DNA of 64,000 nucleotides from Burkholderiaceae bacterium (lineage in GTDB: Bacteria > Pseudomonadota > Gammaproteobacteria > Burkholderiales > Burkholderiaceae_B): NCBI GenBank assembly GCA_030158305.1, contig JAOATE010000031.1, forward strand, positions 30,570-94,569, given 5' to 3'. The position numbers and the translations under genes are program-made. Below the pieces are notes generated by a model. That model was given only the letters and a program-made list of their open reading frames with translations, had not been told where the DNA came from and searched no databases. This document shows, one piece after another, positions 10,181 through 35,116 of the stretch. The stretch's first letter is position 1. Each line of letters starts with the position of its first letter.

Positions 10181-10669
10181 CTACAACCACTTCTGCATGA
10201 AGAGGGCCTGCCCCGTTTCTGGGCTGAGGGAATATTGCTCAAAGCCAAAACGTTGATAAGAGCGCTGCGCTTGGGTATTGCCGCTCAGCACCTCAAGCGT
10301 CACCTTGCAGCACCCTGAAGCGCGCGCATACCCCTCCATCGCTGTCAAAAGCGCCTGACCGACACCTTGACCGCGGTGGGCAGGGTCCACGGCAATGTCG
10401 TGCACATTGAGCAAAGGGCGTGCTTTAAAGGTCGAATATCCGGGCAAGGCATTTAACAACCCGACTGGCTGGCCGTCCTTGAACGCCAGCCAACTGATCG
10501 CTCCGGAAAACTTAGCGAGGTCGTCACACAAACGCAGTCGTGTGTCCGCAGGCAGGGGCTCACCGCCTCCCATTGGGTCTCTGGCATACATATCAAGCAT
10601 GGAAAGGAGAGCCTGGCGGTCACTTGGATCAAGATAATCCACGACTTTGACAACAATGCTGCACTGCAT
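10181..10669 (-). CDS. GNAT family N-acetyltransferase
   Basis: LNVHDIAV, HRGQGVGQALL (acetyl-CoA motif A), YQRFGF. ATG 10669 follows a GGAGAGG RBS; the long ORF-track extension is antisense to the CoA-transferase. Confidence 0.9.
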   Translation of the reverse strand: MQCSIVVKVVDYLDPSDRQALLSMLDMYARDPMGGGEPLPADTRLRLCDDLAKFSGAISWLAFKDGQPVGLLNALPGYSTFKARPLLNVHDIAVDPAHRGQGVGQALLTAMEGYARASGCCKVTLEVLSGNTQAQRSYQRFGFEQYSLSPETGQALFMQKWL

Positions 10670-10766
10670 AAAAACCTCTCCTAGATGCTGACGCGGACCG
10701 ACGAGCCTGCCACCGCTTGTCCGATGGTATAACAACTCGTTTGCAGACCCAAATCGAAGGTACATG

Positions 10767-11972
10767 ATGTCCGACTCTCTGCCCCTTGAAGGCATTCGCG
10801 TTGTTGAATTTACACATATGGTCATGGGTCCCACCTGTGGGATGATTCTTGGCGATCTCGGCGCCGAGGTGATCAAAGTCGAACCGCTCGCAGGTGACAA
10901 CACCCGCAAGCTGCTGGGCTCAGGCTCTGGTTTTTTCCCAATGTTTAACCGCAACAAGAAAAGCATTGCAGTCGATGTCAAACATCCTGCGGGAAAAGAA
11001 ATTGTCCTTAAGCTGCTCGGTTCAGCCGACGTTTTTAGTGAGAACTTCAAAACCGGCACCATGGACAAGCTTGGTTTTGGTTACGAGGCCTTATCCAAGC
11101 TAAACCCCGCCCTCATCTATGTGTCCCACAAAGGCTTTTTGCCAGGACCATATGAACACCGCACCGCACTCGATGAGGTCGTGCAGATGATGGGCGGTCT
11201 GGCCTATATGACGGGTCCGGTTGGACAACCCTTGCGCGCGGGTGCGAGCGTGAACGACATCATGGGTGGCATGTTTGGCGCGATCGGTGTGTTGGCCTCC
11301 CTACAAAAACGGCATCGCACAGGCAAGGGCCAAGAGGTCGCAAGTGCTTTGTTTGAAAACAATGTTTTTCTAGTCGCGCAACACATGATGCAATTTGCCG
11401 TGACAGGTGCTCCGGCCAATCCAATGCCTAACAGGCTAAGCGCCTGGGCTGTATACGATGTCTTTACAGTCAAGGATGGTGAGCAGATATTCTTGTCAGC
11501 CGTCAGCGACACCCAATGGACGATCTTGTGCAAAGAGTTCGGCTTTGATGACCTCAAGTCTGACGATCGACTGGTGACGAACAATGACCGCGTCAAGGCG
11601 CGCAGCTGGCTCATTCCGATTTTGCGTGAAAGGTTTGGCGTGTTGAGTGCAAAAGAACTGAGTAGCCGTTTTGAACAATGCGGCTTGCCTTATGCGCCCA
11701 TTACACGCCCACACGACTTGTTCGACGATCCCCACCTGCTCGCCACGGGCGGCCTGGCACCTGTCACGATCGCTGCCGACAACACGGGCGCCGGACGAGA
11801 AATCGAAACCCGCGTCGCCCTGTTACCAATCGCTCTTGAAGGTGAACGCCTGCAAGTGCGCAAAGCTCCACCAACAATCGGTGCCGATACGATCGAACTT
11901 TTACAAAGCATCGGCTATACCCAAGAAGAAATATCAGCCCTCAAAGACAATGGAGTCGTGACATGGAATTAA
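10767..11972 (+). CDS. CaiB/BaiF class III CoA-transferase
   Basis: GIRVVEFTHMVMGP, LGAEVIKVEP, NRNKKSIAVD, ADVFSENF, ALDEVVQ. Confidence 0.92.
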   Translation: MSDSLPLEGIRVVEFTHMVMGPTCGMILGDLGAEVIKVEPLAGDNTRKLLGSGSGFFPMFNRNKKSIAVDVKHPAGKEIVLKLLGSADVFSENFKTGTMDKLGFGYEALSKLNPALIYVSHKGFLPGPYEHRTALDEVVQMMGGLAYMTGPVGQPLRAGASVNDIMGGMFGAIGVLASLQKRHRTGKGQEVASALFENNVFLVAQHMMQFAVTGAPANPMPNRLSAWAVYDVFTVKDGEQIFLSAVSDTQWTILCKEFGFDDLKSDDRLVTNNDRVKARSWLIPILRERFGVLSAKELSSRFEQCGLPYAPITRPHDLFDDPHLLATGGLAPVTIAADNTGAGREIETRVALLPIALEGERLQVRKAPPTIGADTIELLQSIGYTQEEISALKDNGVVTWN

Positions 11973-18134: not shown

Positions 18135-18204
18135 AACGAAATCCTGACAGAAGTAAGAGCTTCATTTTAGAATAGAACGACCTTTGACAAATAGGAAGAT
18201 CAGC

Positions 18205-19065
18205 ATGCCAGACTGCACGGGCGTCATCAGCCAGATGTTCATTTACCCGATCAAGTCGTGCGCTGGTATCGAAATTTCGGAGTCGCCACTCCTGCATACG
18301 GGTCTATTGCACGACCGTGAATGGATGATCGTCGACCAAGACGGGCAGTTTCTGACCCAACGTCAGATCCCCCATATGGTCTGGATCACACCGCGGCTCA
18401 CTGGAGAAGCGCTCTACTTGAGCGCGCCCGACCAACAGGAGGTTCGGGTGGCGTTTGACCATGTTGGCACAGCCAAACAAGTCACCGTCTGGCGCGATAC
18501 GCTCCCGGGCGACGATATGGGCGATGAGGTTGCGGCATGGCTCGATGCCTTTTTAGCCGTCCCAGGCAAGCGGTTTCGCCTAATCCGGTTTTCGTCACAG
18601 GCCAGCCGGTTCTCGGCAAAGGAATGGACGGGTGATCTTCATGCCCCCAATATGTTTAGCGATGGTTTTGCACTACTTGTCGTGACACAACGTGCACTAG
18701 AGGTGTTAAACGAGCGCCTGATGGCCGAGGGCTTTGAGGCGGTGGACATGTTGCGCTTTAGACCAAACCTTGTTCTAGAGGGGCTGGATGCGCATATCGA
18801 AGACGAACTTAGCCATCTTTTGTTACATACCGCCGCTGGAATGATCGACCTCCAACTGGTCAAGCCCTGCGGTCGTTGTCCAATCCCTAATATCGACCCT
18901 TACACCGCCACAAGCACCCCCGAAGTCATGGAGACGCTCTCGGCTTACCGTCGACTCGATCGTATGCATGATGCGATCTGCTTTGGCATGAATGCCATTG
19001 TCCGTTCGGGAGTCGGACAAACCTTGCGGGTCGGACAGCCTTTCCAAGCAGATTATGCTGTTTGA
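18205..19065 (+). CDS. MOSC domain molybdoprotein (mARC/YcbX-like, no ferredoxin domain)
   Basis: IYPIKSCAG, DREWMIVD, FSDGF, RFRPNLV, KPCGRC. Confidence 0.9.
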   Translation: MPDCTGVISQMFIYPIKSCAGIEISESPLLHTGLLHDREWMIVDQDGQFLTQRQIPHMVWITPRLTGEALYLSAPDQQEVRVAFDHVGTAKQVTVWRDTLPGDDMGDEVAAWLDAFLAVPGKRFRLIRFSSQASRFSAKEWTGDLHAPNMFSDGFALLVVTQRALEVLNERLMAEGFEAVDMLRFRPNLVLEGLDAHIEDELSHLLLHTAAGMIDLQLVKPCGRCPIPNIDPYTATSTPEVMETLSAYRRLDRMHDAICFGMNAIVRSGVGQTLRVGQPFQADYAV

Positions 19066-19171
19066 CTTTAAATATTCATCCCTCCAAACAGAACAGTCCT
19101 CTCTATCGTACTGCTGAGTGTTAAGCTAATCGAGCGCTACCTGTGCCAGGCCCAACTAGGAAGTCACTCCC

Positions 19172-19330
19172 ATGATTATGATGCTGCCTTTTTTAACTGC
19201 CCTCATCGCGATTGGCTTGACCATGCGTGGCGAAAGGATGCCCACTATCATCGCCTGGGGGATTACCTTTTTGATCTTTCTCGCGTGGCTCCAGTACCAC
19301 ATGACAGACACACTCAATATTTCTCTCTAA
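19172..19330 (+). CDS. Small membrane protein (52 aa), DUF5993-like, absent from the ORF track
   Basis: Hand translation MIMMLPFLTALIAIGLTMRGERMPTIIAWGITFLIFLAWLQYHMTDTLNISL*. Two hydrophobic helices; ends 9 bp before dsbB. The MMLPF...H.TD.L.I.L pattern is recalled for DUF5993. Confidence 0.75.
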   Translation: MIMMLPFLTALIAIGLTMRGERMPTIIAWGITFLIFLAWLQYHMTDTLNISL

Positions 19331-19339
19331 AGGTCGGTC

Positions 19340-19936
19340 ATGGACTATTCAAGTCGTTCACAAAGCACCACTGGCCAAGGCATTTCTTTCTGGCTGAACG
19401 CCTTCGCGTTGGCGGCAGTATGCGGCTCTCTGCTCGAAGCGCTGTACTGGCAGATTTTTTTCAACGAACTCCCTTGCCCGCTGTGCCAGCTGCAACGCGT
19501 CGCGCTGACGCTTGCAGGCATCGGCATGATGCTCAATGTTCGCTTTGGCGCGTCTCCCGTGCACTACGCCATCATTCTGGCCTCTGCGCTAGGAGGCGCT
19601 GCGGCCTCTGGTCGACAAATCCTGCTGCATATCGCGCCGGGCGACACCGGTTACGGCTCGACGCTCTTCGGGCTGCACTTTTATACCTGGGGCTTTATTT
19701 CTTTTGTCGTGATGATGGTGTTTTGTGCAGTGATGCTATGCGTGGATCGCAATCAGCTCTCTGAGCCCCGCGTTCAACTTTCCAGTCCCCCACAACTTAA
19801 CAAACGAATCGCTACAGTTCTGATCGGTCTGTTTTTTCTGATTACCGCGGCAAACCTCATTAGTGCCATCATGGTGTGTCAGTTTGGCTCATGCCCTGAT
19901 AATCCAACAGAGTATCTTTGGAAACTTTGGCCTTGA
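19340..19936 (+). CDS. dsbB: Disulfide bond formation protein B family
   Basis: ELPCPLCQLQR, RQILLHI, LFGLHFYTW, four TM segments, and a C-terminal CQFGSCP pair. Confidence 0.88.
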   Translation: MDYSSRSQSTTGQGISFWLNAFALAAVCGSLLEALYWQIFFNELPCPLCQLQRVALTLAGIGMMLNVRFGASPVHYAIILASALGGAAASGRQILLHIAPGDTGYGSTLFGLHFYTWGFISFVVMMVFCAVMLCVDRNQLSEPRVQLSSPPQLNKRIATVLIGLFFLITAANLISAIMVCQFGSCPDNPTEYLWKLWP

Positions 19937-20854: not shown

Positions 20855-21469
20855 ATGTCGATTATTTTTATTCGCCACGGTGAAACACTGCTCAATGCAG
20901 CGCGCACGATTCAGCCTGCTGACACACCTCTCGCTCCTCGCGGCCTCGCGCAAGCTGAGCACATGGCTACACGCGTGCGCGCACTCAAGCCAGCCGCTAT
21001 TTTGGCAAGCGATATGCCGCGCGCCTGGCAGACTGCGGAGGCGATTAGTCGCCAGACAGGGCTCCATCCCGTCAGTACAGACTTACTATGGGAACGCAAT
21101 TTTGGCGACCTGCGAGGACGTCCGCACGACACACTGAGTTTTAACGCCATGGAAATGCTTGAAGCACCTGCGAATGGCGAGTCGATGGCTGAATTTCACG
21201 AACGTGTCACCCAAGCGCTCGCCTTTGCAGTTGAATTCAGAGCGTCTCTTGATGGTCCACTGATTGTGGTGAGTCACGGCTTAGTGATCAGAGCATTGCT
21301 AGAAAACAATATCGATCTTGGACAACACAGTATTCCAGAACGCATTGGTAACACGTCACTCACAACGATCTCCGCTGATTCGCCCCATCGCGCCGAGCTC
21401 GTGAACTGCACCGCACATTTAGTGGGCACTGGACTCGCCGAGGGTGAACACAGCCTGTCAGGTGGCTAA
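20855..21469 (+). CDS. Histidine phosphatase family protein
   Basis: RHGET, LIVVSHG, NTSLT. Confidence 0.92.
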   Translation: MSIIFIRHGETLLNAARTIQPADTPLAPRGLAQAEHMATRVRALKPAAILASDMPRAWQTAEAISRQTGLHPVSTDLLWERNFGDLRGRPHDTLSFNAMEMLEAPANGESMAEFHERVTQALAFAVEFRASLDGPLIVVSHGLVIRALLENNIDLGQHSIPERIGNTSLTTISADSPHRAELVNCTAHLVGTGLAEGEHSLSGG

Positions 21470-22275
21470 GGCCGCACCCCTGGCGTTTCAAGCGGCATGC
21501 CACGTGCGCGCCACATCAAAAAGAGTTCGAGTTGCACCAACTCTTTTGCGCCCAGAGCATAGGGCTCCGCACGCACACCCGTCATGCAGTTTCGCAAGCG
21601 TCGCTGTAACGATCCGACCGTCTGCCATTCAAGTCTATAAATCGGGTACCCCGTTGGATGCGCCTCAGGAATCAGATTGCCACCGAGTTTGAGGCCTGCC
21701 CGCTCTGCGTGACATTGCGCACATGATAAGTTGAGTTGCCCGATACGCTGCTCAAATAAACGCTGACCTGCTTCGAGATCAGCGATGTTGTTGGATGTTC
21801 GCTCGACTGTGATTGGCATGCCTTTGGAAGCATGACCAATGTAGCTCGCCAACGACAGCAAGGCCTTGCTTTCCAGAGGCAGTGATGCAGCCTCTTGCTT
21901 ATGTTGACGACACATGTTGATCTGGCCTTCTAGGCTCAGCAACGTGTGATTGACGACTTTTGGAAAGCTCGCAGCAACACCCTTCATTGAGACGGCAGCA
22001 TCACCGTGACACTGGGCACAGGCCATATTTTTTTTACCTGCCGGTGCATTCCAAATTGTTTGGCCATCCAACACCCAAAAGGTCGCAGGATTGAGTGCTT
22101 CATCGTCCTGCATCGCACGCGTCTCAGGAGACATGAGCCAGTAGCTGGATTGACGTTTAAGCTGAGTCGGCTGTGTCAGCTGTGTCGCAGGCTCTTTAGG
22201 CTGGGCATGCGCAAAAGACATGCCCATGCACAAGAGAATCAGGCACACAAACCGAACCATTGCGCCTACCCTCAT
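21466..22275 (-). CDS. soxA: SoxA-like diheme c-type cytochrome (alternative start 22260)
   Basis: Sec signal; two CAQCH heme motifs; GQLNLSCAQCH; GYPIYRLEWQ; RRLRNCMTGVRA with the active-site Arg/Cys; TPGVRP C-terminus. Confidence 0.9.
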   Translation of the reverse strand: MRVGAMVRFVCLILLCMGMSFAHAQPKEPATQLTQPTQLKRQSSYWLMSPETRAMQDDEALNPATFWVLDGQTIWNAPAGKKNMACAQCHGDAAVSMKGVAASFPKVVNHTLLSLEGQINMCRQHKQEAASLPLESKALLSLASYIGHASKGMPITVERTSNNIADLEAGQRLFEQRIGQLNLSCAQCHAERAGLKLGGNLIPEAHPTGYPIYRLEWQTVGSLQRRLRNCMTGVRAEPYALGAKELVQLELFLMWRARGMPLETPGVRP

Positions 22276-22311
22276 TGCGCCCCCTGCTCCACTTGAAAAA
22301 AAAGCCTCACA

Positions 22312-22644
22312 CTAACCCGTCACAGTCAGTTGACTCGTGACACTCGAGGCATAACCGTTATCGCCCGTCCACTTGAATTCGAGCGTGCCCGTCTGCGTGG
22401 CGACGGTATAAAAACTAAAAGTCGGATTGGCACCTACGGCAGGATGCAACTCGGCACGAAACACTTCAACGCCATCATAGGTGCAGATAAAATCACGAAT
22501 GATATCTCTGGGGACCTGCACACCACGATCGGTATGTCTAAAGCCAGACTCCATATCATGCTGAACAATCACGCGGATCGATACCACCTCACCCTTGGTG
22601 GCAGTTTTAGTCATCGACACAACGGTACGCGAGGTCTTGCTCAT
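22312..22644 (-). CDS. soxZ: SoxZ-like carrier complex protein
   Basis: HDMESGFR, VGANPTFSF, FKWTGDNG. No signal peptide. ATG 22644 overlaps the soxY stop. Confidence 0.88.
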   Translation of the reverse strand: MSKTSRTVVSMTKTATKGEVVSIRVIVQHDMESGFRHTDRGVQVPRDIIRDFICTYDGVEVFRAELHPAVGANPTFSFYTVATQTGTLEFKWTGDNGYASSVTSQLTVTG

Positions 22645-23093
22645 ACGAGTACCTCCTCGGTGCAAGCCGCCAAAGTGACGAGAACCTCTGCAGAGCCTTG
22701 CCAGAACGACCCGTCGCTCATCTCTGCGACGGCCCAAAGTCTCTGTGAAGTTTGCAACCTGATACGCGTGGCCACCTGCGCACGACCCGCGCGCGCACCA
22801 AAATAAAAACTGACGATATTTGGCAGAGGATTACCCTCTGCAATCACATGAATCGCCTTCACGAAGTCAGTCGCTGTCATCGGACTGTCTACCGAGACAC
22901 TCATAGGCACCAGATTGCCGTTTTCCACCAATGGCGATATTTCTAAATTGACACGCCCCATCTTTGGCTGAGCGTTGCCAAGAATTTTTTTAATGGCCTG
23001 CGTGGCCTCTGCGGGTGTGGCTTGCGCCTTCAACCAGGGAACGATGCTCGTCGCCCCCATGACTGCAATAAATGCTCTGCGACTTGTACTCAT
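22641..23093 (-). CDS. soxY: SoxY paralog with an AAC-type swinging arm
   Basis: Tat signal SRRAF; ENGNLVP; EGNPLP; TRIRLQ; C-terminus VTLAACTEEVLV instead of the canonical VTIGGCGG. Confidence 0.88.
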   Translation of the reverse strand: MSTSRRAFIAVMGATSIVPWLKAQATPAEATQAIKKILGNAQPKMGRVNLEISPLVENGNLVPMSVSVDSPMTATDFVKAIHVIAEGNPLPNIVSFYFGARAGRAQVATRIRLQTSQRLWAVAEMSDGSFWQGSAEVLVTLAACTEEVLV

Positions 23094-23545
23094 TGTTTTA
23101 AGCTCACTAAAAAAGCCACAACATCTTCGATTTCCTGCGCAGTCAACATCGTCTTGTTTGCGAACTGCGGGGCAATACGCGCGCCGTGATCTCGACTGAA
23201 ATACGGTGGCATGATTGTGTTGGGATTAAAGCGACTCGCATCGACTAGTCTGGCCCGAAGCTGGCCTTCTGAAAGCTTGGCTGCGCTTGCTGCCAAATCA
23301 GGCGCCAGATTCCCCTGAAATCGCTCTTCAGGAAACGGACCGCTGTGACAAAGAATACACAAACCGCTTTGACGACTTAAAACAATCACGCGCCCCCGAG
23401 CAGGATCGCCGGGGGCACCTGACAGGGAGTCCACAATGACCTCCCCGCTTGTGATCTTTTTCTCAAGCTGCTGAGCGAGAGTGATAGATGGTGCCGCCAA
23501 CACAAAACACGCTGCCAAACACCAATTTATCACTCGCTGCGTCAT
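23090..23545 (-). CDS. soxX: SoxX-like monoheme c-type cytochrome
   Basis: Sec signal; GDPARG; CILCH; TIMPPY (Met ligand); LTAQEIEDVVAFL. Confidence 0.88.
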   Translation of the reverse strand: MTQRVINWCLAACFVLAAPSITLAQQLEKKITSGEVIVDSLSGAPGDPARGRVIVLSRQSGLCILCHSGPFPEERFQGNLAPDLAASAAKLSEGQLRARLVDASRFNPNTIMPPYFSRDHGARIAPQFANKTMLTAQEIEDVVAFLVSLKQ

Positions 23546-25731
23546 ACCAAGGTAAAACCACTTTTCTTCAAAGGTACATCACGCAAACGCTTGCCTGTTG
23601 CACTGAAAATAGCATTCAGCACTGCGGGGGCCGCCACGCAAATCGTCGGCTCACCAATGCCACCCCAAGCTTTTCCGCCACCCTGAATAATGATGGTTTC
23701 AACCTTAGGCATCTGGGCCAGGCGAATTGAGTTAAAGGTGTCAAAGTTCTTTTGCTCAACGCGACCGTCTTTGATCGTGCACTCTTCCTCAAACAAGGCG
23801 GACAAGCCATACACGAAGGAGCCTGATACCTGGCGCTCAATCTGTGCAGGGTTGACGGCATAACCACAATCCGTCGCCGCCACGATGCGGTGGATCTTGA
23901 CCTTGTTGCCGTCTGTCACAGAAAGCTCACACGCTGCAGCCACATAGCTACCAAAAGCCATCATCTGCGCAATGCCGCGGTGCACGCCCTTAGGTGCAGG
24001 CTTGCTCCAGCCAATGCCCTCTGCAGCTGCATTCATTGCAGCGAGGTTACGCGGGAATTTGCCCATGTATTGACGACGGAACTCCACTGGATCCATACCG
24101 GCCTCGTGCGCCAGCTCATCCATAAAGCATTCGATGAAGATCGCGTTTTGGTTCACGTTCACACCCCGCCAGAAACCGGGAGGCACGTGCGTGTTACGCA
24201 TCGCATGATCGATCAACTGGTTAGGGAACTCATACCCAATGGAGTGCTCTCCACCTTCCATGACGCCCTGGAACACCAACAGATCACGGCCTTTGTCTTT
24301 TGCCACAATCGCTGGACGCACAGCCGCCAAAATCGACTGGCCAGACAAACGCATGTGCACACCGGTTAGCTTTTTGTTTGCATCAAAAGCGCCCGTCATT
24401 TTGCACATCATGACAGGATGATAGCGACCCTGCGTCATGTCTTCTTCGCGTGTCCAGATCAGTTTGACTGGCACACCAGGCATTTGCTTGGCAATATTGA
24501 CGGCCTGTGTGGTGTAGTCCTGGAAAGCGCCACGACGACCGAAGCCACCACCCAAGTTGATTTTGTAGACATCGCACTTATCCGCTGGCAAACCAGAGGC
24601 CGCGATCACCGCAGCCAATGAGGCCTCGCCGTCCTGAGTCGGAACCCAAGCTTCGCAGCGCTCTGGCGTCCACTTGGCCGTGGCATTCATCACTTCCATT
24701 GGCGCGTGATTGAGGAAGGGATAAAAATAGGTCGACTCAATCTTTTTGGCTGCGCCTGACAAGGCAGCTTTGGTATCGCCACGCTGGTTGCCCACAAAGG
24801 CCTGCTCAGCTGTCAGTCCCTCTTTGAGCATCGCAGCAATCGATGCGCTGGAGACTTTTGCATTTGGACCCTCATCCCAGACGATGGGCAACGCATCCAT
24901 CGCAGTCTTGGCGACCCAAAATGTTTCAGCCACAACCGCAACAGCGGAGTCACCGACTTGCACCACTTTTTTCACGCCTTTCATGCCGGTCACTTTGCTG
25001 GCATCAAAGCTCTTGATCTTGCCACCAAAAACGGGGGACTCTTTAATCGTCGCCACCACCATACCTGGCAAGGTCAAGTCCATACCGTAGATTTGCTTGC
25101 CAGTGACTTTGTCAGCAAACGTATCAATCCGCTGCACCGACTTACCGATAATTTTCCAGTCTTTTGGATCCTTAAGGGGAATGTCTTTGGGCACAGACAA
25201 CTTGGAGGCGGCCTCAGCCACTTTGCCATACGTTGTTTTACGACCCGTCGCCTTGTGTGTAATCACACCCTCGGACACTTGGCACTCTGCGATCGGCACT
25301 TTCCAGCCATCCGCAGCGGCCTGAACCAGCATCATGCGCGCAGCTGCACCGCCCTGACGCACATACTGTTCGGAGGTGCGAATGCCGCGACTACCGCCTG
25401 TGGAAAATGAGCCCCAAGGGTTTTTACGCTTGAGACTTTCACCAGGAGTCGGGTATTCGGTCGTGACATTTTTCCAGTCACATTCGAGTTCTTCGGCCAC
25501 CATTTGTGCCAGACCGGTGATGGTGCCTTGACCCATTTCGGAGCGCACCACGCGCACGATCACTTTTTCATCTGGTTTGATGACGACCCACACACCGATT
25601 TCAGGTGTGGCGCCAGTAGCTTGTGCCAGACTGCTAAAAGGAAACTGCAAGCCCAGGGCCAGACCAGTACTGACGGCAGTCGTGCCGACAATAAAATGTC
25701 TGCGGGAAGGATTCGGGACGCGAGCATTCAT
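23542..25731 (-). CDS. Xanthine dehydrogenase family molybdopterin-binding subunit (IorB / aldehyde oxidoreductase-like), Tat-exported
   Basis: ATG 25731; SRRHFI twin-arginine signal; RSEMGQG, TGGS, GGGFGRR, FWRGV, GGIGEP (catalytic Glu). Confidence 0.93.
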   Translation of the reverse strand: MNARVPNPSRRHFIVGTTAVSTGLALGLQFPFSSLAQATGATPEIGVWVVIKPDEKVIVRVVRSEMGQGTITGLAQMVAEELECDWKNVTTEYPTPGESLKRKNPWGSFSTGGSRGIRTSEQYVRQGGAAARMMLVQAAADGWKVPIAECQVSEGVITHKATGRKTTYGKVAEAASKLSVPKDIPLKDPKDWKIIGKSVQRIDTFADKVTGKQIYGMDLTLPGMVVATIKESPVFGGKIKSFDASKVTGMKGVKKVVQVGDSAVAVVAETFWVAKTAMDALPIVWDEGPNAKVSSASIAAMLKEGLTAEQAFVGNQRGDTKAALSGAAKKIESTYFYPFLNHAPMEVMNATAKWTPERCEAWVPTQDGEASLAAVIAASGLPADKCDVYKINLGGGFGRRGAFQDYTTQAVNIAKQMPGVPVKLIWTREEDMTQGRYHPVMMCKMTGAFDANKKLTGVHMRLSGQSILAAVRPAIVAKDKGRDLLVFQGVMEGGEHSIGYEFPNQLIDHAMRNTHVPPGFWRGVNVNQNAIFIECFMDELAHEAGMDPVEFRRQYMGKFPRNLAAMNAAAEGIGWSKPAPKGVHRGIAQMMAFGSYVAAACELSVTDGNKVKIHRIVAATDCGYAVNPAQIERQVSGSFVYGLSALFEEECTIKDGRVEQKNFDTFNSIRLAQMPKVETIIIQGGGKAWGGIGEPTICVAAPAVLNAIFSATGKRLRDVPLKKSGFTLV

Positions 25732-25741
25732 GTGAGACCCC

Positions 25742-26194
25742 TTAAGCTTTAGCAACTGAGTGAATCGCGGCGCGAACTTCCTGGAAACTTCCGCAACGAC
25801 AAATATTGGTAATCGCCATATCGATGTCCGCATCAGTAGGCTTTGGATTTTTAGCGAGCAAATCTGTCGCAGCCATCAACATGCCTGCCTGACAGAAACC
25901 GCACTGAGGCACCTGATGATCGATCCAGGCCTGTTGCAATTTGGTGAGCTTGCCATCCGTTGCAAGACCTTCGATGGTCTGCACGCTTTTGCCCGCTGCC
26001 GCGCTCACAGGGATGACGCACGAGCGAATGGCTTGTCCATCGAGCATGACGGTACAGGCACCACACTGCGCCACACCACAGCCATATTTCGTACCTGTCA
26101 ATCCGACTTGCTCGCGAATCGCCCATAACAAAGGGGTGCTTGGATCCACATCAATGCTGTGCGATTTGCCATTGACGGTCAGTTTTATAGCCAT
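25742..26194 (-). CDS. (2Fe-2S)-binding small subunit (IorA-like)
   Basis: ATG 26194; [16 protein letters not shown] and QCGFCQ...NICRCG ferredoxin motifs. Confidence 0.94.
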
Positions 26195-26335
26195 TTGGGA
26201 ACTCCCAGTGTGGTGTTTAATTGTCTCGAAACGAGTTGCAGCGAATACTTCATTCTCCATGTATAAAGTTACTACTCCGCGCCCCTCAACACCGCTTGGT
26301 GCATACCCTATATTCCACCGGACATATCGCCCCCT

Positions 26336-27354: not shown

Positions 27355-27819
27355 TTAAAGGAAACGATCCAAAATGCGGCGACTGTGTTTGTCGAGTTGC
27401 TGCATATCCGCCACGTAGAAACGCAGGCCGTGACTATCCGTAATGATGAGTGTGCCACCATTGAGGCGACGGATATCTTCCTCGCCTTTTAGGATAAATT
27501 TAGTCGGACCTCGATCCGTGACGACTTCCCAAGTACTGGGTGTCGAATACGTGGAGACTTTGGTCAGCTGCTGGATCACAGGCATGACTTCGCGCGAAGC
27601 GATTTCTTCGTTGACCAACGCGCGGATGTCTTCGGGCACCTCAGCCAGGCGCTCAATCCAGAGCACTTCCTTACCCTCGGTGCTCATCAACGCGACAAAC
27701 TCTTGTGGCGATTGAACGGGAAACGCACGCACGGGAATGACACCCTCATGCATCGTGCCATCAGAGAGGCTCAGCACCAGTCGTCCGGCTAGGTTGCGCG
27801 TCAGTTGGAAATCATCCAT
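27355..27819 (-). CDS. DUF1854 domain protein (cyanophycin-locus associated)
   Basis: ATG 27819 overlaps the ABC gene end; VRAFP, PSTWEVVTDRG, LKGEEDIRRL, LDRFL. Confidence 0.82.
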   Translation of the reverse strand: MDDFQLTRNLAGRLVLSLSDGTMHEGVIPVRAFPVQSPQEFVALMSTEGKEVLWIERLAEVPEDIRALVNEEIASREVMPVIQQLTKVSTYSTPSTWEVVTDRGPTKFILKGEEDIRRLNGGTLIITDSHGLRFYVADMQQLDKHSRRILDRFL

Positions 27820-30097
27820 TACTGGCCTCGCTTGCAACGGGCAAAGGAGGCTCCGCATCCACCTGTCGCGTCTGTGCTTCATACAGTGCATGATAGGCGC
27901 CACCACGGGCAAGCAGATCCTCGTGATTGCCAATCTCAACCACTTGTCCGCGATCCAGCACCACCAGGCGGTCGGCTTTGCGCAACGTACTGAGTCTATG
28001 CGCAATCGCAATCGTTGTACGACCCTGGATCAAGTTGTCCAATGCTTCCTGAATTTCCATTTCAGTGGTGGTGTCCACCGACGAGGTCGCCTCATCGAGA
28101 ATCAAAATGCGAGGGTCGATTAGCAACGCGCGGGCAATGGAGATCCGTTGACGCTCACCGCCCGACAACGCCTGACCGCGTTCGCCTACTAAAGAGTCGT
28201 AGCCTTGTGGCAGTCTCAGAATAAATTCGTGCGCGCGCGCGGCTCTGGCGGCTGCGATCACTTCTTCGCGCGTCGCACTCGGTTTACCGTAAGCGATGTT
28301 TTCGGCAATCGTGCCGAAAAACAAAAAAGGCTCCTGAAGCACCAGACCAATGTTGCTTCGGAAAGAGTTGAGCGAATATGAACGAATATCCACACCGTCT
28401 ACACGGATGCCACCTTCGGTGACATCATAAAAACGGCAAATCAGATTGACCAGTGAGCTCTTGCCGGAGCCACTATGGCCCACCAAACCAATCATCTCGC
28501 CGGCGCCAATACTCAAATTGACATTGCGCAACACAGTCCGGCTACCGTAGCGAAATCCCACGTTACGGATTTCGATACGACCTTCCATGCGTGTGAGCGG
28601 AACGGGACGCTGCGCATCCGGCACGCTTGAGACATGATCCAAAATATCAAAGATTCGTTTGGCGCCAGCCGCAGCCTGTTGGGTGTAAGTCACAATCCGG
28701 CTCATGGAGTCCAGGCGGGTATAGAAGCGGCCAATGTAAGCGAGGAAAGCCGCCAATACGCCCACGCTGATCGCGCTAGAGGCAACCTGAGTAATACCGA
28801 AAATCCACACCACCAGCAAACCAATCTCAGTCAAAAACGTCACGGTCGGTGCAAACAACGCCCAGACTTTATTGATGCGATCGTTCACGGCCAAATAACG
28901 ATCATTCGCTTCGCGAAAGCGGGCGACTTCACGCTTTTCCTGAGCAAACGCCTTGACCACGCGAATACCGGGAATCGTGTCGGCCAACACGTTGGTCAAC
29001 TCACTCCAAGAACGATCGACTTTTTCAAAACCAAAACGCAAACGGTCTCTCACTAGATGAATCATCCACACGATGATCGGCAAGGGCACCAGAGTCGTCA
29101 CAGCGAGCCAGGGATCAATTGAGATCAGAATCGCAGCCGTCATCAGGATCATCAACACATCGTTGACGAAATCCAAAAAGTGCAAGGATAAAAATAGGTT
29201 GATGCGATCGGTTTCGCTGCCGATTCGGGCCATCAAATCGCCGGTGCGTTTCCCGCCAAAAAACTGTAGGGATAAAGTCTGCAGATGATTGAAGGTTGTC
29301 GTGCGCAAATCGGCACCCATTCGCTCACTGACCCAAGATAACAAATACGTTCGCGCCCAACCCAGCAGCCATGCCAACAAAGCCGCCACCACTAAACCTG
29401 TCAGATATAGGGTCACTAAATCGTAGTCAATTGGCTTGCCATTCTGAAAAGGGATCAGAATGTCGTCCATCAGCGGCATCGTGAGATAAGGCGGGACGAG
29501 GGAAGCGGCAGTCGACATAAGCGTCAACAGCAAACCCACCAACAACGGCACGCGGTAGGGCTTGGCAAACCGGGCAAGACGAAGCAAGGCCCAAGTATCA
29601 CTAGGGCCCGTTGGCGTGGCTTCACACACGGCGCACTCGTCTTGATCTGGTGCAAAAGGCGTTCCGCAGGCAGGGCAGGCGGCTGCGTCAACGACAATTT
29701 CTGCTTGGGGGTCGCGCAGCTTAGTTTGTAAGTTGCTAAATAATTCGACCATTCTTGCGACGGCAGGAACCATACCAAGCGTATGACGCCAAATACCCAG
29801 CCGAGTCGAACCATCAAATAACTCTATTGAACCCACACCCGCATGATCACGATGTTGAAACGACTGAGTAGTGGAGACTGCCCAAACCAGCCAATCCGAG
29901 TCACCGGGGGCGCGTGCAAACAAACGTCGCGACGACAACACGAGCGCACCAGAGGCAAAGTAAAGACGTTCGTCTAAATCAGGCTCCAACCAAGCGATCA
30001 CGAGCTCACCCGGCTCTAGCATCGCCGTCAGTGTGTCTGACCAGCTGCTTGGCATGGATGGGCTGAGTGAGTGCTCAGAGGATGAGAGAAGTGTCAT
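27812..30097 (-). CDS. ABC exporter (TMD + NBD) with an N-terminal extension, cyanophycin-locus associated
   Basis: GHSGSGKS (Walker A), LSGGERQ, LILDEAT, AHRLST; six-TM domain; about 165 extra N-terminal residues with CPAC...CAVC. Confidence 0.92.
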   Translation of the reverse strand: MTLLSSSEHSLSPSMPSSWSDTLTAMLEPGELVIAWLEPDLDERLYFASGALVLSSRRLFARAPGDSDWLVWAVSTTQSFQHRDHAGVGSIELFDGSTRLGIWRHTLGMVPAVARMVELFSNLQTKLRDPQAEIVVDAAACPACGTPFAPDQDECAVCEATPTGPSDTWALLRLARFAKPYRVPLLVGLLLTLMSTAASLVPPYLTMPLMDDILIPFQNGKPIDYDLVTLYLTGLVVAALLAWLLGWARTYLLSWVSERMGADLRTTTFNHLQTLSLQFFGGKRTGDLMARIGSETDRINLFLSLHFLDFVNDVLMILMTAAILISIDPWLAVTTLVPLPIIVWMIHLVRDRLRFGFEKVDRSWSELTNVLADTIPGIRVVKAFAQEKREVARFREANDRYLAVNDRINKVWALFAPTVTFLTEIGLLVVWIFGITQVASSAISVGVLAAFLAYIGRFYTRLDSMSRIVTYTQQAAAGAKRIFDILDHVSSVPDAQRPVPLTRMEGRIEIRNVGFRYGSRTVLRNVNLSIGAGEMIGLVGHSGSGKSSLVNLICRFYDVTEGGIRVDGVDIRSYSLNSFRSNIGLVLQEPFLFFGTIAENIAYGKPSATREEVIAAARAARAHEFILRLPQGYDSLVGERGQALSGGERQRISIARALLIDPRILILDEATSSVDTTTEMEIQEALDNLIQGRTTIAIAHRLSTLRKADRLVVLDRGQVVEIGNHEDLLARGGAYHALYEAQTRQVDAEPPLPVASEASNG

Positions 30098-30223: not shown

Positions 30224-30338
30224 TTGAACCATCCGTGACTTAGGCTCTGCCAAACCCCCCTTTTTGCTGCGATAATGACACATGCACGGCGTTGTGCAGC
30301 GCAACAAACCATTACTTCTGCAGCCTAAACTGTTTCTT

Positions 30339-32495
30339 ATGAGCACATGTGACATCTCGACTCAGCGCATTATCCATTTGCGCGGGCCGAATATCTGGAC
30401 CTACCGCCCAGTGATCGAGGCTTGGATACAGTTTGACGGCTTTCAGGCCTTACCTGCAGCAACGATGCGTGCCGCCTATGAGCGCTTGTGCCAAGCCCTT
30501 CCCTCACTCACCCAGCCTGGACCCGGCATAGAAGCGTCCAAAGACACGCCTTCATTACTCGCCTCAGGAATGTGGTCTCCCCATCTGCTCGAACACCTCA
30601 CACTCGTCTTGCAGCAACGCGCAGGCATGTCAGGAGGTTTTGGCCAAACGCGCCCTACCTCCAAACCCGGCCTCTTCAAAGTCGTCGTACGCGCGTGGCA
30701 CGAAATCGTGACGCAGCAAGCGCTCAAATTCGCGCGAATCCTGATACTCGATTCTCTCGGTGACCAACCGCTTGACGTCCAACACATGATCGACGCGTTA
30801 CATGAGCTTCGTCTGCTTCATTGCTTGGGTCCCAGCACCGCTTGCATTGTCGATGCTGCAGATGACCGTGATATCCCTGCTATCAGGTTAAGTGCGGGCA
30901 ATCTTTTACAGCTGGGCTACGGTGTCAATCAGCGCCGCATCTGGACCGCTGAAACAGACAACACGGGTGCCATCGCTGAGACCATCTCTCGCGATAAAGA
31001 TCTGACGAAAAGCTTGCTGCAGTCCTGTGGTGTGCCTGTACCGACCGGCCGAGAGGTCTCCAGCGCCGAAGATGCGTGGGACGCCGCACAAGACTTAGGA
31101 CTGCCTGTGGTGGTCAAACCCAGTGATGGCAATCATGGGCGAGGCGTTTTTACAAACTTGTCCACTCACGAGGAAATTAGGCGTGCCTATTGCGTCGCGA
31201 TTGAGGAAGGCTCAGGCGTTCTGGTTGAGCAATTTATTCGCGGCAATGAGCACCGACTCCTCGTGGTGGGTGGCAAACTCGTCGCAGCCGCCAAAGGACA
31301 ACACGCCTGCGTCACAGGTGATGGCAAACAAAGCATCCGAACACTGATTGATACTCAACTCAATGCGGACCAACGCCGTGGACACGAAGAAGATCAGCCC
31401 CTTAATTTTGTCAAACTAGACGCCGCTGCCACACTTGAAATTGAGCGACAAGGCTTTGCACCTGATGACGTGCCTCTAGCAGGACAAGAGATTACGATTC
31501 AACGCAACGGCAACGTTGCGTTTGACTGTACCGAAGAAGTTCATCCAGAGGTGGCAGCCGTTGCCTGCACTGCAGCCCGGATTGTGGGACTCGACATCGC
31601 GGGCATCGACTTGGTCGCTGTTGATATTTCCAAACCTCTCGGTGCGCAACAAGGCGCCATCGTTGAAGTCAATGCCGGTCCGGGCTTACTGATGCACCTC
31701 AAGCCCGCGCAGGGCAAAGCACGTCAAGTCGGCCGTGACATCGTGGGCTACACCTTCCCGCCCGGTGATATGGCAAGGGTCCCTGTCGTTGGCATTACTG
31801 GCACACGCGGTAAAACACTGACAAGCAAACTGCTTTTTAAGCTTCTTTCCCTGTACGGCTGGAAAACTGGACTGGCCTGCAGTGATGGCTTGTTCGTCGA
31901 CCAGCGCCGATTGCACTCTGGCAACTGCGCCGATCATGCAAACGGTCGACGCATACTGTTAAACCGTGAAGTCGAAGCGGTCATTATCGAAAACGGCTGC
32001 AAACAAATTTTGACTGAAGGCCTTGCTTACGAGCGTTGCGAGGTTGGCGTCATAACCAACGTAGATTGGATCGAAGATCTTGCCGCATACGAGATCCGCG
32101 ACGAACTTGATCTGATTAACATTTACCGCACGCAGATGGACGTGGTGCTTCCACATGGCATGGCCATCCTGAATGCCGATGACCAGCGCGTCATGGCCTT
32201 GTCTCAGTTTTGTGATGGTCGAGTCACACTCTTTGGCAGTCAGGCCAATCTGCCCGCCCTTGTCAACCATATTGCCAATGGTCAGCGCGCAGTTTTTATC
32301 GATCACGGCCAGCTGATTTTGGCCGAGGGCTCGGTTCGCCGAAATCTCTGTACGCTGGCCTCTATTCCGGTCACGCAACAAGGTACTCACCGTGAGCACA
32401 TCAGCAGTGTGCTCGCCGCTGCTGCTGCAGCCTGGTCGCTCGGATTAAGTCCCGAGCTCATCGAAGCAGGTTTGATTGCTTTTGAACTGAACTAA
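30339..32495 (+). CDS. cphA: Cyanophycin synthetase paralog CphA' (C-terminally truncated)
   Basis: LRGPNIW, LGPSTACIV, ATP-grasp motifs VVKPSDGNHGRG and VEVNAGPG, GTRGKT. Ends before the DYGHN domain. Confidence 0.9.
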   Translation: MSTCDISTQRIIHLRGPNIWTYRPVIEAWIQFDGFQALPAATMRAAYERLCQALPSLTQPGPGIEASKDTPSLLASGMWSPHLLEHLTLVLQQRAGMSGGFGQTRPTSKPGLFKVVVRAWHEIVTQQALKFARILILDSLGDQPLDVQHMIDALHELRLLHCLGPSTACIVDAADDRDIPAIRLSAGNLLQLGYGVNQRRIWTAETDNTGAIAETISRDKDLTKSLLQSCGVPVPTGREVSSAEDAWDAAQDLGLPVVVKPSDGNHGRGVFTNLSTHEEIRRAYCVAIEEGSGVLVEQFIRGNEHRLLVVGGKLVAAAKGQHACVTGDGKQSIRTLIDTQLNADQRRGHEEDQPLNFVKLDAAATLEIERQGFAPDDVPLAGQEITIQRNGNVAFDCTEEVHPEVAAVACTAARIVGLDIAGIDLVAVDISKPLGAQQGAIVEVNAGPGLLMHLKPAQGKARQVGRDIVGYTFPPGDMARVPVVGITGTRGKTLTSKLLFKLLSLYGWKTGLACSDGLFVDQRRLHSGNCADHANGRRILLNREVEAVIIENGCKQILTEGLAYERCEVGVITNVDWIEDLAAYEIRDELDLINIYRTQMDVVLPHGMAILNADDQRVMALSQFCDGRVTLFGSQANLPALVNHIANGQRAVFIDHGQLILAEGSVRRNLCTLASIPVTQQGTHREHISSVLAAAAAAWSLGLSPELIEAGLIAFELN

Positions 32496-32545: not shown

Positions 32546-35116
32546 ATGGAAGTTTCTAGAATTCGCGCGCTACGTGGTCCTAATTTATGGAGTCGCCACA
32601 CTGCCATCGAAGCAGTTGTGACGTGTTCAGGCGACGAAGCTGACCTGGATCAGATGCCCGGTTTCGTCACACGACTGCGAGCACGATTTCCAGAAATCAA
32701 GCCTCTTCGTCCTTTTGGACACAAAGATCCGATTACTTTGGCGCACGCGATTGAAGCGATTGCACTGGGTTTGCAAGCCGCAGCGGGCTGCCCCGTTGCC
32801 TTTGGTCAAACAACGTCGACGCCCGAGCAAAATGTCTTTCAAATTGTCTTTCAATATACCGAAGAGCCTGTCGGTCGACGTGCCCTCGAACTCGCAGAGA
32901 GTTTGTGCCAGGCCGCGTTAGACGACACTGCCTTTGATATCAAACAAGCGCTCTCTGAGTTGCGCGAACTCGACGAAGACGTTCGTCTCGGTCCAAGTAC
33001 TGGATCCATTGTGGATGCCGCGGTTGCACGAGGCGTGCCTTATCGTCGTCTGACTGAGGGTAGCCTAGTCCAGTTTGGTTGGGGTAGCAAACAAAAACGC
33101 ATCCAAGCCGCTGAGACCAGCAGCACCAGCGCAATCGCAGAAGCCATTGCCCAGGACAAAGACCTGACCAAAATGTTGCTGCAAGCCGCTGGCGTGCCAG
33201 TTCCCCAGGGACATGTCGCGACCAATTCAGATGATGCATGGGAAATCGCCAACCACATCGGTTTGCCGGTTGTCGTCAAGCCTCGCGATGGCAATCAGGG
33301 TAAAGGCGTTGCGGTCAACATCGAAACACGCGAACAACTCAACAAAGCCTTTGACGTTGCCTGCACAATCAGTCGCGATGTCATCATTGAGCAATACATT
33401 CCCGGTCACGACTTTAGAATGCTGGTGATCGGCAACCAACTCATCGCCGCCGCCAGACGTGATCCACCCAGCGTCATCGGTGATGGTCAACATACGATTG
33501 CTCAGCTCGTTGAGACGGTTAACTTAGACCCCTTGCGCGGCGATGGCCACGCCACAGCACTGACCAAAATTCGCCTGGATGATATTGCTCTGGCGACGCT
33601 GGCCAATCAAGGCTTAAACGCCCAATCCGTTCCAGAGAATGGTCAGCGTATTTTGTTGCGCAACAATGCCAACCTGAGCACAGGTGGCAGCGCCACGGAT
33701 GTCACGGATGAGGTGCATCCTGAACTAGCCGCCCGCATGGTGACTGCTGCGCAAATGGTCGGACTCGATATTGCGGGCGTCGACCTCGTAGCAGAAACCG
33801 TCGTCAAACCCATGGAAGAGCAGCGCGCCGGCATTGTCGAGATCAATGCCGCCCCCGGCCTGCGCATGCACCTCAGCCCCTCGTTTGGCAAAGCGCGTCC
33901 CGTGGGCGAAGCGATCGTATCGACCATGTTCGCCGATGGAGATAACGCCCGCATACCTGTGGTCGCCGTCGCCGGCACCAATGGTAAAACGACCACCGTC
34001 AGACTGACAGCACATTTACTCGGTGCGAGCGGCAAACGCGTTGGCATGACCAACTCTGACGGTGTCTATATCGAGCATCGCTGCATCGACACTGGAGACT
34101 GTAGCGGACCGCGTAGTGCACGCAATGTACTCATGCACCCTGATGTCGATGCCGCAGTATTTGAAACGGCACGTGGCGGGATTTTGCGAGAGGGATTGGC
34201 ATTTGACAAATGCGACGTGGCCATCGTGACCAATATTGGCATGGGCGATCACCTCGGTATGAATTTCATCACGACGGTCGATACACTTGCATTAGTCAAA
34301 CGCGTCATCGTTCAAAACGTGGCGCCTCATGGCACTGCCGTGCTCAATGCCATGGATCCCATGGTCATCAAAATGGCAGAGGTTTGTCCGGGTTCCGTGA
34401 CGCTTTTCTCCAGTGACCGTCAACAACCCGCTCTCAACACGCATCGCGCCCAAGGCAAGCGGGTGGTGTATCTCGATGGAGACAATATTGTCGCGGCTGA
34501 AGGCAGTACTGAGCACCGACTCGCGCTAAAGGCGATTCCGCTGACGCGCAACGGTAGCATCACCTTCCAAAATGAAAATGCGATGGCCTCAATCGCTGCA
34601 GCATGGGCACTGGGCATCGACTGGCAAACGATTGCCACTGGTCTCTCAACCTTTGTGAATGACGCTCAAACGGCGCCAGGGCGCTTTAACGTGTTTGATT
34701 ATCGGGGCGCCACGGTCATTGCCGACTACGGACATAATCCAGATGCGATTCAGGCACTGATTCAAGCAATTGAGACGATGCCAGCCAAGCGCAGAATGGT
34801 CGTGATTAGTGGTGCAGGCGATCGTCGCGATGAGGATATCGTGCGTCAGACTGAAATTCTTGGCGAAGCGTTTGATCAGGCAATTTTGTATCAGGATCAA
34901 TGCCAGCGCGGACGAGAGGATGGTGAGGTGCTTGCGCTTTTGCAGCAGGGGCTGGTCAATGTCTCACGCACAAAAGACATCGTCGAGATCAGAGGCGAGT
35001 TTTTAGCGATTGATACTGCACTCGCCAAATTAGAACCTGGTGATCTCTGTTTGATTTTGATCGACCAGGTGCAAGAGGCTTTGGATCATATTGCCCTGCG
35101 CGTCAAGCAGGGCTGA
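32546..35116 (+). CDS. cphA: Cyanophycin synthetase (full length)
   Basis: LRGPNLW, LGPSTGSIV, VVKPRDGNQGKG, GTNGKTT, ETARGG, PGRFN, DYGHNP. Confidence 0.95.
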   Translation: MEVSRIRALRGPNLWSRHTAIEAVVTCSGDEADLDQMPGFVTRLRARFPEIKPLRPFGHKDPITLAHAIEAIALGLQAAAGCPVAFGQTTSTPEQNVFQIVFQYTEEPVGRRALELAESLCQAALDDTAFDIKQALSELRELDEDVRLGPSTGSIVDAAVARGVPYRRLTEGSLVQFGWGSKQKRIQAAETSSTSAIAEAIAQDKDLTKMLLQAAGVPVPQGHVATNSDDAWEIANHIGLPVVVKPRDGNQGKGVAVNIETREQLNKAFDVACTISRDVIIEQYIPGHDFRMLVIGNQLIAAARRDPPSVIGDGQHTIAQLVETVNLDPLRGDGHATALTKIRLDDIALATLANQGLNAQSVPENGQRILLRNNANLSTGGSATDVTDEVHPELAARMVTAAQMVGLDIAGVDLVAETVVKPMEEQRAGIVEINAAPGLRMHLSPSFGKARPVGEAIVSTMFADGDNARIPVVAVAGTNGKTTTVRLTAHLLGASGKRVGMTNSDGVYIEHRCIDTGDCSGPRSARNVLMHPDVDAAVFETARGGILREGLAFDKCDVAIVTNIGMGDHLGMNFITTVDTLALVKRVIVQNVAPHGTAVLNAMDPMVIKMAEVCPGSVTLFSSDRQQPALNTHRAQGKRVVYLDGDNIVAAEGSTEHRLALKAIPLTRNGSITFQNENAMASIAAAWALGIDWQTIATGLSTFVNDAQTAPGRFNVFDYRGATVIADYGHNPDAIQALIQAIETMPAKRRMVVISGAGDRRDEDIVRQTEILGEAFDQAILYQDQCQRGREDGEVLALLQQGLVNVSRTKDIVEIRGEFLAIDTALAKLEPGDLCLILIDQVQEALDHIALRVKQG

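Follow-up and report, generated by a model that had tools for sequence, protein, structure and literature searches.

What does a set of Sox carrier proteins do when its genes are joined to those of a molybdenum (Mo) hydroxylase of the xanthine oxidase family? The question is raised by a locus of a Burkholderiaceae bacterium (assembly GCA_030158305.1, contig JAOATE010000031.1), of which a stretch of 64,000 nucleotides, hereafter the window, was analysed. Here, the genes for the 2Fe-2S (FeS) subunit and the Mo-binding subunit of such an enzyme are followed by paralogues of soxX, soxY, soxZ and soxA. The SoxY paralogue, whose carrier arm is altered, is named SoxY*. The arrangement proved to be real and widespread: a variant of the Sox carrier system whose genes are tightly linked to those of a partner from the xanthine oxidase family.

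The operon and its products

The gene order, the common strand and the gene junctions agree with a preliminary description of this DNA. ATGA start/stop overlaps join the Mo gene to soxX (23545-23542), soxX to soxY* (23093-23090) and soxY* to soxZ (22644-22641), while the FeS gene is separated by 10 bp (25741-25732) from the Mo ATG at 25731 and soxZ by 36 bp from soxA. Judged from this layout, the six genes are one tightly coupled operon (Table 1). Its promoter region is presumed to lie in the divergent intergenic region at 26195-26335. A promoter/terminator scan found no minus-strand consensus sigma-70 site upstream of the operon, and the upstream sequences of operons from different loci share motifs within lineages only, with no regulator site callable.

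The Sox products were compared with curated models and solved structures. SoxX (75.7 bits against TIGR04485, cutoff 61) has a Sec signal and a CxxCH motif (C63, C66) that is invariant in 80 sequences. SoxA, which also has a Sec signal, scores 208 bits against TIGR04484 (cutoff 110) and aligns to Rhodovulum SoxA (1h31, E 2.4e-34) with its two CxxCH motifs and the two Cys that ligate the haems (C122, C230) in register. Its residues C86, C89, C122, C185, C188 and C230 are invariant in 76 sequences, and the active-site Cys ligand and the neighbouring Arg are likewise invariant. The pair thus has the c-type haems and the Cys-ligated active-site haem of a SoxXA.

SoxY* reaches 192.7 bits against TIGR04487 (cutoff 172), an exception-level model called "SoxY-related AACIE arm protein" whose name is also carried at NCBI by its close relatives, and fails TIGR04488, the model of true GGCGG SoxY (93.1 bits, cutoff 125). 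Its C-terminus reads TLAACTEEVLV and not the GGCGG of the swinging arm; in all 80 relatives, the arm consists of [AS]-A-C-[TAS]-E plus 1-4 residues, and the single Cys144 is conserved in 81/81 sequences. The protein bears a twin-arginine (TAT) signal, SRRAFIAV. SoxY* and SoxZ align with Paracoccus SoxYZ (2ox5), the carrier Cys being at the equivalent position. In the AlphaFold2 model, SoxY* is a beta-sandwich, and because its last 10 residues are unstructured, with a predicted local distance difference test (pLDDT) score < 50, the arm is predicted to be still flexible. Such an altered but flexible [AS]AC-type arm would fit a different set of partner enzymes. SoxZ has no signal peptide, passes PF08770 (81.9 bits), falls slightly short of TIGR04490 (72.6 against a cutoff of 76) and aligns to Paracoccus SoxZ (2ox5_Z) with E 1.1e-15. 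Its invariant Cys54 was considered as a special feature and rejected, since Paracoccus SoxZ has the same Cys.

Compared with the canonical Sox systems of Paracoccus pantotrophus and Rhodovulum sulfidophilum, the set shares the SoxXA haem motifs and Cys ligands, the fold signature of SoxYZ, a lone C-terminal Cys on a flexible arm and the X-Y-Z-A order, but its arm is AACTE (followed by 3-4 amino acids) instead of GGCGG, and it comes with a xanthine-oxidase-family enzyme and without SoxCD. No candidate for SoxB or SoxCD was found in the 64-kb window, in which ten non-operon open reading frames (ORFs) were checked against Pfam and the remaining ORFs were read as housekeeping. The Sox set is therefore non-canonical, as had been proposed, in both its arm and the company it keeps. 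Apart from SoxA and SoxX, the 52 non-overlapping ORFs of the window include no c-type cytochrome; a chance CxxCH also occurs in the photolyase-related ORF at 5484-7025.

As for the Mo subunit, its sequence places it among the xanthine-oxidase-family hydroxylases of the IorB/membrane aldehyde dehydrogenase (ALDH) type. It matches models of that family only and no sulfite-oxidase-family domain, so that it does not class with SoxCD. It carries a TAT signal, SRRHFIVG, in which R10, R11 and F13 are invariant among orthologues, a GGGFGRR motif and a catalytic-type Glu694 in GIGEPT; GGGFGRR and GEP are also invariant. The Glu of GIGEPT is what we take, from established knowledge and the alignment, to be the catalytic base of xanthine-oxidase-family enzymes. 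Together with the MoCo domains and a small subunit for two [2Fe-2S] clusters, these motifs are those of the two-subunit IorAB/ALDH type, and no gene for a subunit binding flavin adenine dinucleotide (FAD) was found in the operon. The FeS subunit has eight Cys that are invariant in 67 orthologues; having no signal peptide itself, it presumably crosses the membrane in complex with the Mo subunit, which bears the TAT signal. Both in SoxYZ and in TAT-exported Mo enzymes, signal-less partners travel as passengers. All six products are thus predicted to be periplasmic, because the Mo subunit and SoxY* have TAT signals, SoxX and SoxA have Sec signals, and the FeS subunit and SoxZ are presumed passengers.

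Two further Cys of the Mo subunit, C359 and C386, are invariant in 72/72 orthologues and specific to this clade, and the ALDH structure sequence of Gluconobacter oxydans has W and V at these positions. Judged by the positions of the motifs, one strand ends at the active-site Gln and the other at the GGGFG loop, with the two Cys lying on these strands, and they could form a periplasmic disulfide.

Table 1. Features of the Sox-Mo locus, in window coordinates
Feature	Position	Strand	Domain, model or basis
2Fe-2S subunit of the Mo enzyme, 150 aa	25742..26194	-	PF00111 (Fer2) + PF01799 (Fer2_2)
Mo-binding large subunit, 729 aa	23542..25731	-	PF02738 (MoCoBD_1) + PF20256 (MoCoBD_2)
SoxX paralogue, 151 aa, mono-haem cytochrome c	23090..23545	-	TIGR04485
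SoxY paralogue (SoxY*), 150 aa	22641..23093	-	TIGR04487
SoxZ paralogue, 110 aa, partner of SoxY*	22312..22644	-	PF08770
SoxA paralogue, 269 aa, di-haem cytochrome	21466..22275	-	TIGR04484
Divergent intergenic region, 141 bp, between the operon and an NADP-dependent oxidoreductase gene	26195..26335	.	ORF layout

Linkage of the Mo enzyme and the Sox paralogues across genomes

The linkage was examined from both sides. For SoxY*, we searched one genome of each species with an alignment of AACIE-arm proteins and kept the best 80 of 275 relatives; on the Mo side, a metagenome scan gave 80 loci whose enzymes are 62-74% identical to that of the window, 49 of which were evaluable (at least 1.5 kb downstream). 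The Mo gene stands directly upstream of soxX in 75 of the 77 SoxY*-anchored loci with enough upstream sequence, and all six genes occur in the same order in 64 of these 77. Genes for Sox paralogues or for a flavoprotein of the flavocytochrome c sulfide dehydrogenase (FCSD) type follow the Mo gene in 42/49 metagenome loci. Since the arrangement recurs in 75/77 evaluable genome loci, chance co-location was rejected. The coupling of the Sox set to a xanthine-oxidase-family enzyme, which the preliminary description had made dependent on co-occurrence in other genomes, stands on the gene overlaps and on this two-sided linkage.

The gene order is FeS-Mo-X-Y-Z-A(-FCSD) in Betaproteobacteria and FeS-Mo-FCSD-X-Y-Z-A in Bradyrhizobium, and in Starkeya it is X-Y-Z-A-F, followed by Mo (PMC3797975). 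The Mo/Sox linkage thus survives rearrangement, spans two proteobacterial classes and is seen from both sides. The pairwise-identity matrices of the six proteins also correlate (Spearman 0.63-0.86). The next full-length relatives of the Mo subunit in a 50%-identity representative library are only 44-52% identical, and the bulk of the family (3,910 representatives, E <= 1e-30) is at 36-42% identity; the Sox-linked Mo enzymes are therefore one small, discrete branch, which by these comparisons is near-obligately linked to the Sox paralogues. No SoxB candidate was found among the conserved neighbours of the 80 loci.

The operon is common: of the species-level genomes behind the best 80 matches, at least 75 contain it, and at least roughly 600 metagenome stretches were retrieved. 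Hosts among these best 80 are Alcaligenaceae (Zwartia, Sheuella, Jezberella), Polaromonas/Comamonadaceae, many Polynucleobacter and two Alphaproteobacteria; Bradyrhizobium is a further host, across which this operon's AACIE-arm SoxY is widely distributed. The window itself is from a Zwartia species (Alcaligenaceae, Betaproteobacteria). Its nearest genome locus, L012, belongs to a metagenome-assembled genome (MAG) of Zwartia sp., and the proteins encoded in this region are 94-99% identical. Evidence from RNA is weak: of seven short contigs obtained from two metatranscriptomes, one spans the junction of Mo and soxX. An exact look-up of the window SoxY* returned short contigs only.

A cluster of this type has been in print since 2013 and SoxY* is curated in NCBIfam, so that the novelty does not lie in the cluster itself, and the term "undescribed" used in the preliminary description was too strong. 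The published case is the second sox cluster of Starkeya novella, soxX2Y2Z2A2F2 (Snov_1982-1977), drawn together with a xanthine-oxidase-family Mo enzyme, Snov_1975/1976 (Kappler et al., PMC3797975). It likewise has SoxX, SoxY, SoxZ, SoxA and a two-gene xanthine-oxidase-family enzyme, without SoxB/SoxCD, but its Mo genes come after soxF and not before soxX, and the SoxF-like flavoprotein present there has no counterpart in the window. From the description in that paper and from the alphaproteobacterial loci L065, L067 and L081-83, it is almost certainly the same system. A literature search on the TIGR04487/AACIE SoxY family and on the cluster gave nothing further, and no paper assigning a function to either was found.

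Is the operon, then, still functional? In S. novella, the second cluster was expressed at very low levels on glucose, methanol and thiosulfate, and SoxAX2 and SoxYZ2 were absent from the proteome data under these three growth conditions; Kappler et al. considered that the cluster may be functionless or may be used under other conditions (PMC3797975). That it is a functionless remnant, as was thus raised for S. novella, is extremely improbable in view of the intact frames and invariant catalytic residues in >100 loci and of the strong conservation of the Mo subunit (mean pairwise identity 0.79). Because the catalytic residues and the arm are invariant over ~70-80 orthologues, the operon is not a decaying duplicate, and pseudogenisation was rejected on the same ground.

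The Sox paralogues could also be spare isoenzymes that serve the canonical thiosulfate pathway through a distal SoxB/SoxCD, with the Mo enzyme as a mere neighbour. The soxY2 gene of B. japonicum was reportedly defined by Masuda et al. in 2010. B. diazoefficiens has two soxY homologues, soxY1 alone being indispensable for the oxidation of thiosulfate (Masuda et al. 2017, PMC5748708). Given the wide distribution of the AACIE-arm SoxY of this operon across Bradyrhizobium, the soxY2 of B. diazoefficiens is probably the SoxY*-type gene; look-ups of the Bradyrhizobium AACIE protein cluster did not name B. diazoefficiens. The studied relatives of the window cluster are thus, unlike canonical Sox, apparently neither induced by nor needed for thiosulfate oxidation, and the published data on both organisms argue against simple redundancy. 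SoxA and SoxX do exceed the NCBIfam equivalog cutoffs, a SOX complex has been reported from Zwartia genomes, and both S. novella and B. diazoefficiens also hold a full canonical cluster (PMC3797975; PMC5748708). We nevertheless regard such an isoenzyme role as very unlikely, since the Mo and soxX genes overlap translationally, the two-sided linkage persists through rearrangement across two classes, the SoxY* arm fails the GGCGG model, the second S. novella cluster is not induced by thiosulfate and soxY1 alone is essential in B. diazoefficiens.

This has a practical consequence. Because automatic pipelines label the parts of the operon "SoxX/Y/Z/A", its genes are probably booked as thiosulfate-oxidation potential in metagenomic surveys, which may be wrong. 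Among the bacteria of freshwater plankton and soil, the hosts are dominant.

Possible functions of the module

In the operons of relatives, a TAT-exported flavoprotein of the FCSD type (FCSD/SoxF; PF21706 FCSD_central, PF09242) recurs, which ties the module to sulfur. Its gene comes directly after soxA in 25 of the 68 evaluable genome loci; in Bradyrhizobium and in many loci from soil metagenomes, it separates soxX from the Mo gene. No FccA-type cytochrome was seen beside it in the betaproteobacterial loci, and the window operon has no soxF.

Our tentative preference, which we hold to be possible rather than probable, is that SoxXA charges SoxY* with a sulfur species, which is probably not thiosulfate, and that the Mo enzyme processes this species in place of SoxB/SoxCD. 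The module would then be a self-contained periplasmic oxidation system built around a carrier protein. As in canonical Sox, SoxXA would oxidatively join a sulfur nucleophile, most likely sulfide, a persulfide/polysulfide or an organic thiol, to Cys144 on the arm of SoxY*Z. Thiosulfate seems an unlikely substrate because the S. novella cluster is barely expressed on it and B. diazoefficiens needs soxY1 only. The Mo/2Fe-2S enzyme may next act on the carrier-bound group, in a water-dependent step of oxygen transfer or release. It would thus fill the slot of SoxCD or SoxB, acting like SoxCD as a periplasmic Mo enzyme on carrier-bound sulfur, but with a xanthine oxidase fold and 2Fe-2S clusters where SoxCD has a sulfite oxidase fold and a haem subunit. 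As this Mo clade lacks a cytochrome subunit of its own, electrons would leave through the two [2Fe-2S] clusters to c-type haems, those of SoxX/SoxA or of a soluble cytochrome c. FCSD/SoxF, where encoded, might feed sulfide-derived sulfane sulfur to the carrier or keep the carrier active; this is the role discussed for SoxF in canonical systems.

Several points weigh against this route, and the chemistry is the main one. We know of no xanthine-oxidase-family enzyme that oxidises sulfur or a protein-bound substrate, and the established chemistry of the family is the hydroxylation of activated carbon. In addition, the FeS and Mo subunits are better conserved (mean identity 0.77-0.79) than the Sox parts (0.61-0.65), and the two modules are separable. 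Thus, 7/49 Mo-anchored loci have no Sox genes nearby; these seven are scattered among the Sox-linked sequences in a neighbour-joining tree, and a separate Sox-less Mo clade was rejected. Conversely, two Polynucleobacter loci (L069, L080) have soxX-Y*-Z-A without adjacent Mo genes. Finally, a tandem second FeS/Mo pair, 53-55% identical to the first, is found upstream of the Sox-linked pair in L013, L014, L019, L026, L033-L038 and L042 (~3900-6850), and two soil contigs (L134, L135) have a third pair (47-51%), all pairs being on the same strand ahead of (FCSD-)soxX-Y*-Z-A. Such series of two or three pairs look more like diversification for free small-molecule substrates.

That the xanthine-oxidase-family enzyme acts on a sulfur- or thiol-linked group on the carrier arm, giving a periplasmic route independent of SoxB/SoxCD (e.g., sulfide to carrier persulfide to sulfite/sulfate), is by itself a doubtful proposition, as this is to our knowledge a reaction class foreign to the family. 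If it were true, such a route would run in heterotrophs that abound in fresh water (Polynucleobacter, GKS98/Zwartia, Polaromonas) and in soil (Bradyrhizobium). Moreover, action of the Mo enzyme on a carrier-bound group would extend the chemistry of its family to sulfur or protein-tethered substrates and add a new branch to the oxidative sulfur cycle.

The same evidence can be read with the Mo enzyme at the centre, as an ordinary periplasmic dehydrogenase for a free aldehyde, N-heterocycle or organosulfur compound, of which SoxX and SoxA are mainly the cytochrome c acceptors; SoxY*Z would be secondary, for example trapping a reactive sulfur or thiol by-product. The closest solved structure to the Mo subunit is indeed the large subunit of the membrane-bound aldehyde dehydrogenase of G. 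oxydans (8gy3_C, E 8.6e-69 over the full length, with a minority of the aligned residues identical). Like this enzyme and the IorAB hydroxylases, the window enzyme combines a large Mo subunit bearing a TAT signal with a small 2x[2Fe-2S] subunit and no FAD subunit. The 8gy3 complex, however, has a dedicated multi-haem cytochrome c as its third subunit, and such a subunit or domain is a feature of the ALDH and NicB types. The window operon encodes none: no cytochrome subunit for the Mo enzyme was found in the operon or window besides SoxX and SoxA, nor beside the Mo genes in the Sox-less loci, and this dearth of cytochrome genes other than soxX and soxA in the Mo clade would be accounted for if these two were its acceptors.

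A dehydrogenase of free substrates would also suit the tandem Mo paralogues and the very high Mo/FeS conservation, as expected of a substrate-specific enzyme, the occasional separation of the Mo and Sox modules, and the presence of a pyrroloquinoline quinone (PQQ) alcohol dehydrogenase and a cytochrome c after soxA in Bradyrhizobium. On the other hand, it leaves the invariant Cys of SoxY*, the active-site Cys ligand of SoxA and its neighbouring Arg unexplained, as well as the repeated recruitment of a sulfide-dehydrogenase flavoprotein, and SoxXA is itself an oxidoreductase in need of an acceptor. We consider it a somewhat unlikely explanation.

By analogy with the quinoprotein relay described below, SoxXA and SoxY*Z (with FCSD where it is present) might instead be a periplasmic sulfur relay through which the exported enzyme receives its labile terminal sulfido ligand (Mo=S) or has it repaired. 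Mo=S is normally installed in the cytoplasm, through PaoD/XdhC, before TAT export, and exported enzymes of the IorB/ALDH type elsewhere do not need such a relay to work. For the upkeep of a cofactor, an apparatus of four or five proteins with a catalytic SoxXA among them would be heavy, and X-Y*-Z-A is found without adjacent Mo genes. We thus hold a relay of this kind to be improbable. In its favour, this Mo clade occurs almost exclusively in linkage with these Sox paralogues, the conserved neighbours showed no sulfurase chaperone of the XdhC/PaoD type, sulfide could be turned into sulfane sulfur by FCSD, and SoxYZ-like carriers have a precedent beside non-sulfur periplasmic dehydrogenases (TIGR04557; ped cluster, PMC12997753). 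Should the Sox paralogues maintain Mo=S, they would be the first periplasmic cofactor-sulfuration system.

In the ped cluster, a fused SoxYZ-like carrier, also uncharacterised, is encoded next to PQQ dehydrogenases (PMC12997753). This quinoprotein relay resembles the window system in that a SoxYZ-derived periplasmic carrier is genetically attached to a dehydrogenase outside the sulfur field, but it differs in its fused SoxY-Z, in having a rhodanese and a SoxH-like hydrolase and no SoxXA, and in a partner that depends on PQQ and not on Mo. The window genes are separate, and the fused model TIGR04557 (cutoff 140) is not reached by SoxY* (57.8; second score 36.7).

The preliminary description had offered three mechanisms: (a) processing by the Mo enzyme of a group that SoxXA loads on SoxY*, (b) supply of sulfur for Mo=S and (c) use of SoxXA as an electron sink for aldehyde or N-heterocycle oxidation. 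The Sox-Mo coupling from which it started is real, whereas none of the three is established and all stay hypotheses. Of these, we favour (a), with its electrons leaving as in (c), over both (c) by itself and (b). B. diazoefficiens, S. novella, Polynucleobacter and Zwartia are among the culturable hosts in which the question can be tested directly.

Neighbouring genes in relatives and in the window

Across lineages, the surroundings of the operon contain no regulator, transporter or chaperone of the XdhC type that is conserved. In ~12-20 loci (a subset of L014-L046), which are all from Alcaligenaceae, genes for MarR, a PreA-like dihydropyrimidine dehydrogenase, caprolactamase/hydantoinase-like alpha and beta subunits and a TRAP solute-binding protein lie downstream, about +3 to +9 kb after SoxY*; they are confined to some members of this family and are probably a separate lactam/N-heterocycle catabolic operon. 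In Bradyrhizobium (L081-L083, 11864-14243), the PQQ-dependent dehydrogenase of the methanol/ethanol family and the small cytochrome c follow soxA on the same strand, the former scoring 477 bits against TIGR03075, slightly short of the cutoff of 480. In the two Polynucleobacter loci without Mo genes (9490-11560), divergent LrgA/LrgB-like membrane-protein genes, as read from the ORFs, precede soxX-Y*-Z-A, and no FeS/Mo genes occur in the 10 kb upstream.

In the window, the 3' end of soxA overlaps by 4 bp (21466-21469) that of a convergent histidine-phosphatase-family gene (20855-21469), and no terminator-like hairpin was found between the two. Further on, ~1.5-3.3 kb from soxA and on the other strand, a MOSC-domain protein (MOSC_N + MOSC) and a DsbB-like protein are encoded at 18184-19936. 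The MOSC fold is that of the C-terminal domain of molybdenum cofactor sulfurase, and these neighbours are suggestive of a Mo=S or disulfide theme; against this, their neighbourhood is kept in the Zwartia lineage only.

The remainder of the window is housekeeping, with polyhydroxybutyrate (PHB) genes and genes for 2-oxoglutarate dehydrogenase, citrate synthase, succinate dehydrogenase and malate dehydrogenase. A light-response island at 2484-8986 comprises three consecutive ORFs of the photolyase/cryptochrome family (2484-4034, 4195-5499 and 5484-7025, the last being a PF04244 photolyase-related protein), after which a BLUF blue-light sensor is encoded (8561-8986; PF04940, 102.6 bits). On the other side of the operon, two tandem cyanophycin-synthetase-like genes (30282-32495 and 32546-35116) are divergent from the genes for an ABC exporter (27812-30097) and a DUF1854 protein (27355-27822), a layout that is repeated in the Zwartia MAG locus L086.

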